From Escherichia phage WPEC2, in the sequence record PV691511.1: DNA of 64,000 bases. One strand, written 5' to 3'. Both the position numbers and the translations under genes were made by a program. Below the pieces are notes generated by a model. It worked only from the letters and a program-made list of their open reading frames with translations. It had not been told where the DNA came from and searched no databases. Positions 36,960-45,726 of this stretch are shown in pieces (position 1 is the first letter of the stretch; every line of letters begins with the position of its first letter).

Positions 36960-37188
36960 TTCTTCCTCCTAATGTTATCTCCGGTTTGTCTATACGAAGA
37001 ATTATAGCATTTTCATTTTCTTTGTCAACCCATTCTTCATAATCGGGCCATACATGAATCTCTACTCTACTTACAATATCTTCCATCCGCACAGTCCCAA
37101 TGAAGTATTCTTTGAGACTGCGCATAATGAAAGCTTCTCTCTCGCGCCAATAATTTTCTACGACTTGAGAGGCAAGCTCGTCGATCAT
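36940..37188 (-). CDS. hypothetical protein
   Basis: 82-aa ORF; ATG overlaps stop (ATGA) of the upstream vWA remnant frame. Confidence 0.5.
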   Translation of the reverse strand: MIDELASQVVENYWREREAFIMRSLKEYFIGTVRMEDIVSRVEIHVWPDYEEWVDKENENAIILRIDKPEITLGGRSVKLRN

Positions 37189-37604
37189 TTTTTAGCACCT
37201 ACTTTAACAACCCACTCTCCGAACTCTTCAGATAAGAGTTTGTCATAAAGCTCTGAATCTGTCAAGTCTAAATCTTTAATGCCAATAAAACCAACATTAT
37301 CGTAAGCATTTGCCAGTTCTTTCAGGAAGCCAAACTTCTCATTACCAACGCCAACCATGAACCAATAAATAGGTTTATTCTTATTCTCTTCAATAAGACG
37401 ACGAACAGCACTAGGATCACCATTCTCACCGTCTGTCTGGAAGAATACAACACCAGGAGTAACGTCAGCACTTGGTTCAGATACAGCTACAACCTTTTCA
37501 CGCTCTACAGATACTGTTTCAGTTTTACCAAGCAGAGAAATTACTACAGAACAAGCCCTTATCGACGAGGGTCGTAAAATCTTAGAAAAGTATTTAGGGG
37601 AGAT
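37185..37604 (-). pseudogene. start-less vWA-domain C-terminal remnant (TerY-like), probable truncated gene
   Basis: 139-codon open frame between stops at 37605-37607 and 37185-37187 with no in-frame ATG/GTG/TTG in first about 85 codons; encodes ...VVFFQTDGENGD...YWFMVGVGNEKFGFLKELAN...; MIDAS DxSxS N-terminal half absent in all frames upstream. Confidence 0.5.
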
Positions 37605-37623
37605 TCATAAAACCCCTGGCTAT

Positions 37624-37863
37624 TTGGGTTGGAGAATTGTTGAAGCTGTAGATTTCCTTCCTCGTAACAGTAAAAACGTCGAAATGCGATCTCTTTTCTT
37701 ATTAGTAAAGGTGGATGGGGATACGCCTTTTAAAGATGCCGCAGAACATATTGAAAAAGTTGAAGAGAAAGCTTATGCAGAATTTGCCGATCTTGTTTTA
37801 GAACAAGAGATTGAAGGAAAGGTGAATATTTTTATTTTCTTAGATTTTGAGGAGGATAAGTGA
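37624..37863 (+). CDS. questionable small ORF at island boundary
   Basis: Track ORF begins with TTG; frame open upstream without start codon; weak SD; may be non-coding leader of phosphatase operon. Confidence 0.25.
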   Translation: MGWRIVEAVDFLPRNSKNVEMRSLFLLVKVDGDTPFKDAAEHIEKVEEKAYAEFADLVLEQEIEGKVNIFIFLDFEEDK

Positions 37864-38603
37864 TCATACACAGAGAAATTACTGTTAAAAGCGATCAAGA
37901 TCTTTTTATAATTGGAGATCTACACGGTTGTTATAATTTGTATGAAAAAGGAAAGGCAAAGTTAGGTATCCGAGATACAGATGTGGTTGTATCTCTAGGA
38001 GATCTTACTGACCGTGGAAAGCAAAACTTTCGTTGTGTTTTAGAATTTACTCGTAAACACAATCGCTACGCTATTCGTGGCAATCATGAAGACATGATGA
38101 TTAAAGGTATGCTGGAAGGAGATCGTAGCTACTACGAGTGTTGGTATCAAAATGGAGGATATACGGTCTTTGAAGAATGTGGTGAAGAAGGAGCTACAGC
38201 CTTAGCAATGATGACAGAAGATTTACCTGTTGTTCTCATTGTTAACTACAGAGGCATGAAACTTGCGTTTATTCATGGTGGGTATCCATCTTCTTTGGAA
38301 TATCTCCCTGTAACAGATATTCCAGAATACATTTCGAAGATGACAAAAACACAGGAAAACCGTTTTGCTGAAGCACTTATGTGGGACAGAGATATGGTAG
38401 ACTGTGCTAAAGAGGGAATGAAACTTCCTGTTGTGATGGGTGTGGATTATGTGTTTCATGGACACTCTTATGTAAAAACACCTATTATCAATGCGAATCG
38501 TGTTTATATGGATACTGGATCTGTGTTCAATAATAATTTAACATTTGCTTATTTCGATATGGACGGTGGTCTTCAATTTTATTCAACTCTTGAGGAGGAT
38601 TAA
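37860..38603 (+). CDS. Ser/Thr protein phosphatase, PPP family (lambda phosphatase-like metallophosphoesterase)
   Basis: 247 aa; GDLHG, GDLTDRG, GNHE metallophosphatase motifs in order; GTG start 4 nt after GAGGAGG SD. Confidence 0.85.
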   Translation: MIIHREITVKSDQDLFIIGDLHGCYNLYEKGKAKLGIRDTDVVVSLGDLTDRGKQNFRCVLEFTRKHNRYAIRGNHEDMMIKGMLEGDRSYYECWYQNGGYTVFEECGEEGATALAMMTEDLPVVLIVNYRGMKLAFIHGGYPSSLEYLPVTDIPEYISKMTKTQENRFAEALMWDRDMVDCAKEGMKLPVVMGVDYVFHGHSYVKTPIINANRVYMDTGSVFNNNLTFAYFDMDGGLQFYSTLEED

Positions 38604-38911
38604 TGTATAAGATTACAATTATTCAAAGTGTAGGTAATATCCGTAAAGAAGTTATCTTAGAAACAGAAGATGTTAATCTTGTTCGTGAGATTGTTCTTAA
38701 GGAAGATAACCTGCAAGCTGTAGAATCAGATGCACCGAATCTTATGGTGGATCAAGAATATTCTGAACTTCGTCGTATTTTTGAAGAGATTCAGAAGAAA
38801 GAAACACAACCGACCATAAAACCTTTTGGTCCTTATGATCCGAGCAATCCTAGCAGTCCTTGGATCATGAGAAATACGGAACCGTATACACCTTTTGAAA
38901 TTACTTGTTGA
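38603..38911 (+). CDS. hypothetical protein
   Basis: 102-aa ORF; start overlaps upstream stop. Confidence 0.55.
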   Translation: MYKITIIQSVGNIRKEVILETEDVNLVREIVLKEDNLQAVESDAPNLMVDQEYSELRRIFEEIQKKETQPTIKPFGPYDPSNPSSPWIMRNTEPYTPFEITC

Positions 38912-38918
38912 GGTGATT

Positions 38919-39500
38919 ATGGCAGAACTGTTCTATACGGGAGTTGGAAGTAGAGACATATCCGAAGAAGAGTGGGCTTTGATGGTAGGCATAGGGAAAT
39001 GGCTTTCAAACCTTGGGTTTAAATTAAGGTCTGGGAAGGCAGAGGGTAGTGATTCTGCTTTTGAAACAGGTGTCCAAGAGTCTGAAAATCCTACTAACAA
39101 GGAGATTTATGTTCCTTGGGAAAATTTCAAAGGTAATCAGATTCCAGGGGATGTTATTGTTCTTGCAAAACCAGATACAATGAACTATGCTATCTCTGTG
39201 CAATGGATCAAAGATGTTCACCCAGCCTATGAAAAGCTTAAGCAGGGTGCTAGAAAATTGCACCAACGTAATGTGCATCAAGTGTTAGGTAGAGATTTGG
39301 AAAATCCTGCTCCATCCTGTTTCTTGTTGGCTTGTGCTAATACTGATAAACATGGAGATGCAAAAGGTGGAACAGCTACGGCTTGGAAGATAGCTAAAGC
39401 CAATAATGTTCCTTGTTTAAACATTCGTGGGAAAACAAAACAAGAGATTTACGATTTTCTACGACCTTTGGTAATGAGGGCAATAACAAGTGATTCCTAA
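38919..39500 (+). CDS. SLOG-superfamily Rossmann protein (DprA/Smf-like)
   Basis: ATG at 38919 after GAGGTGA SD; FYTGVGSRDISEE...LRSGKAEGSDSAFETG resembles DprA G.R...SG.A.G.D pattern. Confidence 0.5.
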   Translation: MAELFYTGVGSRDISEEEWALMVGIGKWLSNLGFKLRSGKAEGSDSAFETGVQESENPTNKEIYVPWENFKGNQIPGDVIVLAKPDTMNYAISVQWIKDVHPAYEKLKQGARKLHQRNVHQVLGRDLENPAPSCFLLACANTDKHGDAKGGTATAWKIAKANNVPCLNIRGKTKQEIYDFLRPLVMRAITSDS

Positions 39501-44541: not shown

Positions 44542-45341
44542 TTTTTGTAAGCGGTGCAGGTTTAAGCGCAGACAGTGGGATTCGAACATTTAGAACAGAC
44601 ACAGATAGTGGTCGTGCTTTATGGGAAGAATATGATTTAGAAGAGGTCTGCGATATTGGAGCTTTCCAAGCAGGTTATCGTGTTAGAACATCTCCAGATC
44701 TTCCAGTGGTCGGTGGTGTAGACGAGAACGGTATGGATTTGTATGCCAAAACACACGAATTTTATAACAAAAGACGTGTTGAGCTTAAAGATGTACAACC
44801 TAATGCTGCACATATTCAAATAGCAAAGTGGTTTAAGGAATATCCTAACCAAATAGTAAACTTGACAACAAACGTTGATGATCTACTAGAGCGAGCAGGT
44901 GTAGACAGAGATTCTGTTATTCACGTACACGGATATCTTCCTGAAGTAGTTTACCGTATGCATCCTGGAGATTACAAAACACTGGTAGATATTGGTTACA
45001 ATAGTATAAACATAGATGATTATAACTGGGTGAAGCCTAATGTTGTATTTTTTGGTGAGGCTGCACCTTTGTATGCAGATATGGCTCACTTGTTCGATAC
45101 TTTGACCATGCAAGATTTGGTTGTAGTAGTAGGATGTTCAAACCAAGTTATCAATTTTAATTGGGAATTATTTCCTGCACTTAGTATGGGTACAAAAATG
45201 GTTGTAGTTAACCCTGGAGTTAATTACGAAGAAACACTTCTCTATGAAGATCGTGGAGTTTTTGTTTACCGAGAAAAAGCTGCAACAGCCTTCAGCAATG
45301 AAGGTTTCATTAAAATGGTCGAAGACCACTTAAACAAATAA
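44526..45341 (+). CDS. Sir2-family (CobB-like) sirtuin lacking Zn-binding cysteines
   Basis: 271 aa; GAGLSADSGIRTFR, QPNAAHIQIAKW, TTNVDDLLERAG, VIHVHG, VVFFGE, VVVVGCS align with CobB motifs; no CxxC pairs; ATG after GAGGAGGAAGA SD. Confidence 0.8.
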   Translation: MPRRVIFVSGAGLSADSGIRTFRTDTDSGRALWEEYDLEEVCDIGAFQAGYRVRTSPDLPVVGGVDENGMDLYAKTHEFYNKRRVELKDVQPNAAHIQIAKWFKEYPNQIVNLTTNVDDLLERAGVDRDSVIHVHGYLPEVVYRMHPGDYKTLVDIGYNSINIDDYNWVKPNVVFFGEAAPLYADMAHLFDTLTMQDLVVVVGCSNQVINFNWELFPALSMGTKMVVVNPGVNYEETLLYEDRGVFVYREKAATAFSNEGFIKMVEDHLNK

Positions 45342-45348
45342 ACCACTC

Positions 45349-45371
45349 AAGGGGCTTCGGCCCCTTTCTTA
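45349..45371 (+). terminator. rho-independent terminator
   Basis: Hairpin AAGGGGC-TTCG-GCCCCTT followed by TCTTATT. Confidence 0.7.
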
Positions 45372-45384
45372 TTAGGAGAATAAA

Positions 45385-45657
45385 ATGACTGAAGAAATCC
45401 GTGATTACTACCTTGCACATTACGTTTACTACTTTGCCAATGCTACACAAAAAGGGGAAGGTAATCTTTACTTGGCAACAGGACATGGAACAGGCGTTAG
45501 GAAATCAAATATTGATAATGCCTTGGCTCAAGTGGCTGCGGGGCTAGAAGATAAACTTCAAACACCTGTAGTTGTAGTGATGCAAAATATAAGTTACCTA
45601 GCAAGTTGTACTGAAACCGAATTTAACGCGTCTGAGACGCAATCTAACGAAGAATAA
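45385..45657 (+). CDS. hypothetical protein
   Basis: 90-aa ORF with AGGAGAA SD. Confidence 0.5.
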   Translation: MTEEIRDYYLAHYVYYFANATQKGEGNLYLATGHGTGVRKSNIDNALAQVAAGLEDKLQTPVVVVMQNISYLASCTETEFNASETQSNEE

Positions 45658-45660
45658 AAC

Positions 45661-45692
45661 AAAGGCACCCAAGTGGGTGCCTTTTCTATTTT
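45661..45692 (+). terminator. rho-independent terminator closing the plus-strand island
   Basis: Hairpin GGCACCC-AAG-TGGGTGCC followed by TTTTCTATTTT. Confidence 0.8.
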
Positions 45693-45726
45693 AGAGCGTC
45701 TCTGTTCGATTTAGGTGGGTTCTAGC

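Follow-up and report, generated by a model that had tools for sequence, protein, structure and literature searches.

A conserved phapecoctavirus gene block with a probably artefactual left edge in the sequence record of Escherichia phage WPEC2

Results

Gene layout and borders of the plus-strand block

The sequence record of Escherichia phage WPEC2 (PV691511.1) was analyzed in a stretch of 64,000 nucleotides (nt), referred to here as the window, which contains a block of 17 genes (37537-45657) located between genes of the opposite strand. The block encodes a phosphatase, a SLOG-superfamily protein, a cytosine-methyltransferase-like protein, a sirtuin and an Acb2/Vs.4-family protein, among others (Table 1). 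Every plausible open reading frame (ORF) of the block reads on the plus strand, with minus-strand genes on either side (22313-37188 and 45727-63720). The GC skew changes sign at around 37.5 kb and 45.7 kb, matching both strand switches, and the GC content of the block (0.376-0.416) shows no shift relative to the flanks (0.363-0.428 over the whole window). A terminator scan found 17 terminator-like sites in an 11-kb region, against 6.6 ± 2.6 in shuffled sequences. An earlier note, made from the sequence alone, had described a plus-strand block between minus-strand flanks with four strong terminators; the ORF layout and the GC-skew flips agree with the first point, and the scan recovered all four terminators. 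One terminator hairpin of 22 nt, AACCCGCTTCGGCGGGTTTTTT, is found on the plus strand at 41248-41269 in the block and shows a perfect inverted copy on the minus strand outside it (45984-46005). No tRNA genes were found in the window.

Table 1. Position and main characteristics of the genes, terminators and junction of the plus-strand block (reference positions refer to phage Mt1B1_P17; aa, amino acids).
Feature	Position in the window	Strand	Characteristics
vWA-TerF-like C-terminal remnant	37185-37535	-	116 codons plus stop; relatives 264 aa (Mt1B1_P17 gp094)
Blunt junction AGCAGA/GAAATT	37536-37537		reverse complement of reference 42259 joined to reference 123648
gp228 homologue, phrog_15398	37537-37863	+	lacks ATG; sole in-frame start TTG at 37624
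Lambda-type PPP Ser/Thr phosphatase (NinI-like), phrog_246	37860-38603	+	PF00149, PDB 1G5B
phrog_15301 protein (gp226)	38603-38911	+	PHROGs
Single-domain SLOG-superfamily protein, DprA-like clade, phrog_768	38919-39500	+	AlphaFold2 model, Foldseek
phrog_8569 protein (gp224)	39490-40002	+	PHROGs
phrog_4991 protein (gp223)	39981-40271	+	first gene of the stretch missing in Justusliebigvirus
phrog_899 paralogue 1	40255-40452	+	C-terminal W-H-P-S-S-L-S-C
Acb2/Vs.4-family cyclic-oligonucleotide sponge (anti-CBASS)	40464-40739	+	PF24729, PDB 7UQ2
phrog_899 paralogue 2	40739-40957	+	
phrog_899 paralogue 3	40967-41239	+	
Intrinsic terminator	41248-41265	+	followed by sigma-70-like promoter 41271-41299
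DUF7277 + DUF7275 protein, phrog_2141	41330-42271	+	also in T4-like and rV5-like phages
phrog_16551 protein	42273-42668	+	PHROGs
C5 cytosine-methyltransferase-like protein of 227 aa, phrog_757	42661-43344	+	very small target-recognition region
phrog_8514 protein (gp215)	43344-43997	+	C-terminal half alone survives in Justusliebigvirus
Intrinsic terminator	44013-44037	+	11-bp stem
Acidic phrog_9509 protein (gp214)	44056-44541	+	end overlaps Sir2 start by 16 nt
CobB-like sirtuin (Sir2) without the four Zn-binding cysteines	44526-45341	+	PF02146, E. coli CobB 1S5P
Intrinsic terminator	45349-45366	+	
phrog_15991 protein (gp212)	45385-45657	+	last gene of the plus-strand block
Bidirectional terminator	45661-45684		convergence of plus block and leftward small-gene block; genuine conserved right boundary

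The left edge of the block adjoins a fragment of a vWA-TerF-like gene. Its product matches Pfam PF10138 (E 5.5e-20) at profile positions 93-194 of 200 only, and the fragment shows no start codon until an internal ATG at 37358, which confirms the start-less C-terminal remnant that had been described at this edge. The block does abut this truncated gene, but the real boundary is 37536/37537 and not 37185. The first plus-strand gene, the gp228 homologue, is also truncated; gp228 is intact (330 nt) in Escherichia phage WPEC6 and in phage Mt1B1_P17. An intact vWA gene of 795 nt is found in Mt1B1_P17 (gp094, 41816-42610), where it is located about 81 kb from gp228, and in phages WPEC1 and WPEC4.

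In phapecoctaviruses the vWA-TerF-like gene is part of a Ter-like cluster, together with genes encoding a TerC membrane protein, a protein annotated as tellurite resistance and TerD. This cluster is located at 35452-37535 on the minus strand of the window, with the TerD gene (36072-36674) adjacent to the remnant, and adjoins a SleB-type cell-wall hydrolase annotated as endolysin; in Mt1B1_P17 it is found at 35920-43723.

No direct or inverted repeats bounding the block were detected, just 15-16-mers similar to ribosome-binding sites and reused terminators, and no recombinase was found among the block proteins in Pfam or PHROGs scans. At the right edge, homologues of gp211-gp207 are found, as in the reference genomes, and not the N-terminal half of the vWA gene.

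Native context in related phages

According to megablast, the window belongs to a Phapecoctavirus (phAPEC8-like myovirus, subfamily Stephanstirmvirinae). Matches were found in 134 phage records, of which 52 cover at least 80% of the region 36000-47000 and 70 cover at least 80% of the block itself. Every match to 36000-47000 starts at window position 37537 or 37538, and in these genomes the counterpart of the sequence on the left (34000-37536) is found at a different, distant place. Nucleotide identity is 100% to Escherichia phages WPEC1, WPEC4 and WPEC6, and 99.6% to Mt1B1_P17. In relatives (more than 15 independent genomes) the block shows 97-100% identity and an unchanged gene order.

Local blast against Mt1B1_P17 divided the window in two collinear parts: window 1-37536 corresponds to the reverse complement of reference 79562..42259, and window 37537-64000 to the reference from 123648 onward. 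There is therefore a single breakpoint, 37536/37537. The plus-strand genes of Mt1B1_P17 form a continuous block of about 34 kb (97591-131768), 26 kb of which are upstream of gp228; it contains genes for DNA ligase, exonucleases, NrdAB, sugar epimerases, PhoH and an HslV-like peptidase, followed by gp228-gp212, and the 8 kb of the window are its last quarter. The canonical join, in which gp229 is followed by the ATG of gp228, was seen directly in Mt1B1_P17, WPEC6, nepoznato, Justusliebigvirus Bas62 and one Logan contig, and from abutting coordinates in six further genomes. Furthermore, the vWA-side and block-side segments show the opposite relative orientation in more than 15 independent genomes. 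The convergence of gp212 and gp211 at the right boundary is likewise found in Mt1B1_P17, WPEC6, nepoznato and Bas62.

The synteny comparison, with the context inspected in five genomes, showed the block neither absent nor relocated among relatives, a point that the earlier note had proposed to check. Dozens of GenBank records already name the NinI-like phosphatase, the DprA-like protein, the DNA methyltransferase and Sir2. The block is a real and conserved feature that was already known.

The 37536/37537 junction

The sequence at the breakpoint, ...ACCAAGCAGA/GAAATTACTACAG..., shows a blunt join with zero microhomology. It cuts gp094 at reference position 42259 and gp228 right after its ATG, and both genes are therefore left without starts. 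Searches with a 100-mer (blastn) and a 33-mer (exact) in 50,697 phage records and in IMG/VR found no record spanning the junction, with no exact match in IMG/VR. An exact look-up of the two truncated ORF products gave no record of the 57-aa vWA fragment, and for the 79-aa gp228 fragment just a Logan contig with the canonical arrangement. The reciprocal junction expected from an inversion is absent from the phage records as well.

WPEC1, WPEC4 and WPEC6 are 100% identical to the window on both sides of the junction, with an intact vWA gene where examined, and WPEC6 shows the canonical gp229-gp228 arrangement. WPEC1 and WPEC4 reuse the breakpoint base of the window (gp228 nt 4) with three different partners, at reference 116794, 39106 in reverse, and 39182. 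These two records contain five stray copies, of 76-78 nt, of window 37537-37613, each continuing into a different sequence, and some of them are preceded by the start-codon variants ATA or ACG. Repeats of the gp228 5' end with differing neighbours are located at 8342-8417, 20001-20078 and 20158-20234 in WPEC1, and from 5635, 6005, 11795 and 11951 in WPEC4. A constant overlap of 77 nt is typical of un-trimmed de Bruijn-graph contigs with k=77, a common assembler setting. The GenBank sequences of WPEC1 (161 kb) and WPEC4 (156 kb) show many tiny ORFs and appear to be concatenated assembly-graph contigs and not finished genomes. WPEC6 is also non-collinear with the canonical order elsewhere, so the four assemblies of essentially one phage disagree. 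Judged from assembled records, the junction is most probably a contig mis-join from assembly or scaffolding.

The window shows a further irregularity at about 63105-63357. Past reference position of about 150000, the sequence jumps to reference 5017-5675 at 90% identity and skips around 6.2 kb of the small-ORF region of Mt1B1_P17; WPEC6 and WPEC1 connect otherwise at this point, in reverse orientation. This would be a second questionable join or, alternatively, a region of hypervariable repeats.

Enzymes encoded in the block

The product of the phosphatase gene matches PF00149 (E 2.7e-13, 51.2 bits against a cut-off of 21.5) and the lambda phosphatase structure 1G5B (E 5.5e-27), and its translation shows the GDxHG, GDxxDRG and GNHE motifs.

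The SLOG protein has no Pfam hit, and thus no match to PF02481, a domain that few of its homologues carry. Its assignment needed a structure model because the PDB sequence search gave nothing significant. The AlphaFold2 model shows a Rossmann-like SLOG fold, with one domain of 193 aa and a predicted local distance difference test (pLDDT) score of 95.2; the additional DprA domains, N-terminal SAM and C-terminal winged helix, are absent from this single-domain model. Foldseek ranked Helicobacter pylori DprA first (E 4e-5), followed by the Moco carrier protein, the SLOG domain of ThsA, ShosA, YpsA and LOG.

The methyltransferase-like protein has motifs I (FDGSG), IV (FPxCT, with the catalytic Cys) and VI (ENPVGK), which do not vary among 30 homologues. 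Foldseek matched it to the catalytic domains of DNMT3A/3B and to M.HaeIII, with E 2e-8 and template modelling (TM) scores of 0.5-0.59. No Pfam hit was obtained at E ≤ 0.01, so that PF00145 was not reached. The family shows unusual conservation and contains 870 homologues of around 220 aa; the best 120 of these 870 are all at least 59% identical, and a precomputed PF00145 hit is found in one of them.

The sirtuin matches PF02146 (E 1.9e-22, 80.5 bits against a cut-off of 24) and E. coli CobB 1S5P (E 7.6e-19), with alignment of GAGLSADSGIRTFR, which contains the GAGxS loop that binds nicotinamide adenine dinucleotide (NAD), and of VIHVHG, with the catalytic His. The Zn-binding Cys positions of CobB are replaced in this alignment, and the entire protein has two Cys. 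It remains below the NCBIfam CobB equivalog (85.9 bits against a cut-off of 320). The PADLOC scan of the Sir2 and SLOG proteins matched no defence-type model, and the scan gave just weak N-terminal methyltransferase matches.

The four proteins are real members of their folds. The calls of the earlier note, a PPP phosphatase, a SLOG/DprA-like protein, a minimal C5-methyltransferase-like protein of 227 aa and a CobB-like sirtuin without Zn cysteines, are borne out by the profile, motif and structure matches.

Acb2/Vs.4 homologue and its neighbours

The gene at 40464-40739, missing from the earlier note, encodes a protein that matches PF24729, the Acb2/Tad1 hairpin family, with E 1.2e-16 and 61 bits against a cut-off of 27. 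It aligns over its full length to T4 Vs.4 (PDB 7UQ2), residues 3-91 with 3-89, with E 1.8e-28. From its identity of about 65% to the T4 protein we infer that it acts as a cyclic-nucleotide sponge blocking the cyclic-oligonucleotide-based antiphage signalling system (CBASS). Vs.4/Acb2 is an established family, and this gene, of a known type, is the only counter-defence gene of the block that can be assigned with confidence.

Three phrog_899 paralogues surround the Acb2/Vs.4 gene, one upstream and two downstream, and all three share the C-terminus W-[HI]-[SP]-S-S-(0-2 residues)-C. Downstream of them, the DUF7275 protein shows no significant PDB sequence match; its N-terminus (LIGSRA ... DLDYL) resembles, on a reading of the sequence, the GS...DxD signature of minimal nucleotidyltransferases.

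Variability of the block

Gene order is constant within the genus, and nepoznato shows two extra genes. Beyond the genus, one Justusliebigvirus genome, Bas62, was compared. By tblastn it keeps gp228, the phosphatase, gp226, the DprA-like protein, gp224, gp214, Sir2 and gp212, and lacks the genes from gp223 through the N-terminal half of gp215. Bas62 retains a C-terminal fragment of gp215, and this pattern indicates that about 4.3 kb, with Acb2, the DUF7275 protein and the methyltransferase-like gene, was deleted.

Acb2 and Sir2 are 67 and 66% identical, respectively, to those of the congeneric nepoznato, while neighbouring genes are 98-100% identical. The Sir2 protein is nevertheless 95.5% identical to that of Bas62 (Sir2 loci compared in these two phages: L010 10196-11002 and L011 11224-12036). 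This higher identity to the other genus than to the congener therefore suggests a recent exchange of a single gene between genera, and the identity pattern of Acb2 and Sir2 is one of allele replacement at the level of genes. Single-gene homologues are scattered in other phages: Vs.4 and DUF7275 in T4-like, Sir2 in T5-like, and Sir2 and DUF7275 in rV5-like phages. Given the deletion, the allele swaps and these scattered homologues, the content behaves as dispensable, exchangeable accessory genes.

Insert in the DNA polymerase I gene

In the window, the gene for DNA polymerase I (24877-28209, minus strand) shows an in-frame insert of 245 aa at about 25729-26463 that Mt1B1_P17 lacks. Its first residue is Cys (CVPMDAQ...), a LAGLIDADG-like sequence, FLEGFLIADGYW, is found within it, and it ends in ...ITGN before a +1 Cys; the extein join ESHY/CWRY is uninterrupted in Mt1B1_P17. 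These characteristics look like those of an intein, and no Pfam hit was obtained at E ≤ 1e-3.

Discussion

We consider the region to be a conserved block of a phAPEC8-like genome that carries accessory genes and shows an artefactual left edge, with a probability of about 85%. According to this model, 37537-45684 would be the native distal 8 kb of a rightward, early/middle and mostly non-structural block of about 34 kb (gp281-gp212 in Mt1B1_P17), which would normally stop at the bidirectional terminator, where it meets the leftward small-gene block. The left side would have been replaced at 37536/37537 by an inverted piece that all other genomes of the genus carry at a distance of 81 kb, and the join would split the vWA-TerF-like gene midway and strip the start codon from the first gene of the block. 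The genes of the block would be conserved accessory genes, in at least four terminator-bounded expression units.

Several points weigh against this model. No duplicated 40-mers were found inside the window, and the k=77 evidence therefore comes from the sibling records. WPEC6 shares the unusual relative orientation of the two segments of the window. The expression timing of the block is drawn from two sources, its position and its sigma-70-like promoters, and the count of the latter (38 against 31.2 ± 6.1 by chance) is not above chance. Finally, the roles are predictions: for the phosphatase, the SLOG protein, the methyltransferase-like protein and the sirtuin, the probable ones are host takeover, repair or modification of nucleic acids, or counter-defence.

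The alternative that survives best, still with doubt, is that just one accessory segment, the central part of the block (about 39981-43690, gp223 through the N-terminal half of gp215), is genuinely mobile and was gained or lost within the subfamily; this segment would take in Acb2, the DUF7275 protein and the methyltransferase-like gene. Its absence from Bas62 with the flanking genes still syntenic, the two extra genes of nepoznato and its divergent Acb2, gp217, gp215 and Sir2 alleles, as well as the single-gene homologues of T4-like, T5-like and rV5-like phages, are in agreement with such mobility. However, the gp215 fragment of Bas62 points to a deletion in that phage and not to an insertion in Phapecoctavirus, the segment is not bounded by repeats, and the comparison covers one Justusliebigvirus genome.

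The cargo of host-takeover and counter-defence genes that the earlier note had described holds in part: the Acb2/Vs.4 homologue, the deletable centre and the allele replacement are in line with it, but not a single acquired cassette. It seems rather unlikely that the block is a dedicated multi-target counter-defence locus, in which the SLOG protein might bind or cleave ADP-ribose-derived alarm signals, in an anti-Thoeris-like manner, and, besides Acb2, separate host immune pathways might be neutralised by the Zn-less sirtuin, which swaps alleles between genera, and by each of the phrog_899 paralogues around Acb2.

We think it improbable that the junction is real and reflects a large rearrangement, such as an inversion of the 81-kb segment between reference 42259 and 123647, which would have inactivated the vWA-TerF-like gene and gp228, both then dispensable. 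The window is collinear on both sides of one clean breakpoint, as the end of an inversion would look, WPEC6 has its segments in the same relative orientation, and no k-mers are duplicated at the junction. Nevertheless, microhomology is lacking, the breakpoints are intragenic, neither the junction nor its reciprocal is found in any record, and in the sibling records the identical base is joined to three other partners, alongside stray copies of 77 nt. Furthermore, the breakpoints of WPEC6 are elsewhere and also non-canonical, and the four assemblies from one source disagree. We therefore retain the mis-join. The two sides of the junction as physical genome ends were also considered and rejected: the records of relatives are arbitrarily permuted, and the breakpoints are inside genes.

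The view of the earlier note, an 8-kb counter-defence or host-takeover island, horizontally acquired by insertion into or next to the vWA gene and truncating it, has in its favour the strand switch at both ends, the truncated gene at the left edge, the internal terminators and unusual enzymes that include an anti-CBASS gene. It is refuted by the synteny comparison and keeps almost no credibility. All relatives carry the block at 97-100% identity with an unchanged gene order, as the continuation of 26 kb of co-directional genes, and their vWA gene is intact and 81 kb distant. The missing vWA half is absent from the opposite edge, the block itself begins with a truncated gene, and neither repeats, nor an integrase, nor a GC shift were found. 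The discrete island is not a biological feature; the block resembles a self-contained island only because the sequence on its left was exchanged at a single blunt junction.

The gene order of this genome, as well as those of WPEC1 and WPEC4, should be treated as unreliable. The case is also a caution, as a single unsupported junction produced a strand-switched "island" that dissolves on comparison with relatives. Phapecoctaviruses are popular therapy candidates, and their Vs.4/Acb2 anti-CBASS gene is located in a stretch that the sister genus can dispense with, beside several widely shared enzymes with allele swapping. The block is a reasonable shortlist for anti-defence screens and not a new kind of system.

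Comparison with known systems

The closest known arrangement is gp228-gp212 of Phapecoctavirus (Mt1B1_P17 NC_052662.1, 123645-131768; phAPEC8, ESCO13 and Schickermooser), which shows the same 17 genes, order, terminators and convergent right boundary. In these references 26 kb of upstream plus-strand genes continue into the block and gp228 keeps its ATG, whereas the window breaks the block off at gp228 nt 4, where an inverted vWA fragment is attached.

In relation to T4 Vs.4 (7UQ2), the Acb2/Vs.4 protein of the block has 91 aa instead of 89, with a near-identical N-terminal sequence (IEDIKGYK..KIGKVNAIKDAE) and C-terminal sequence (LKEASMWACR.VFQPEEKY); however, it diverges in the central helix region, and its gene is flanked by the three phrog_899 paralogues. 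The methyltransferase-like protein has motifs I, IV and VI and the fold in common with bacterial C5 DNA methyltransferases and DNMT3, but in its 227 aa about 70 residues take the place of a target-recognition domain.

Phage sirtuins were surveyed by Iyer et al. 2022 (PMC9503650), who described gene neighbourhoods of rV5-type and T5-type phages that include calcineurin-like phosphoesterases. In the same survey, the stand-alone SLOG proteins of viruses are considered probable counter-measures against immune signals derived from ADP-ribose. None of the partners listed for the rV5 type (tRNA ligase, cREC, kinase and MazG) was found in the block, and its SLOG protein is closest in fold to DprA, whereas the YpsA-like clade dominates viral SLOGs in that survey. 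The block likewise resembles the sirtuin-centred neighbourhoods of medium-sized enterobacterial phages (rV5, SP15/T5-like): within an early region for host manipulation, a CobB-like sirtuin is located near a calcineurin-like phosphoesterase and a SLOG protein that stands alone.

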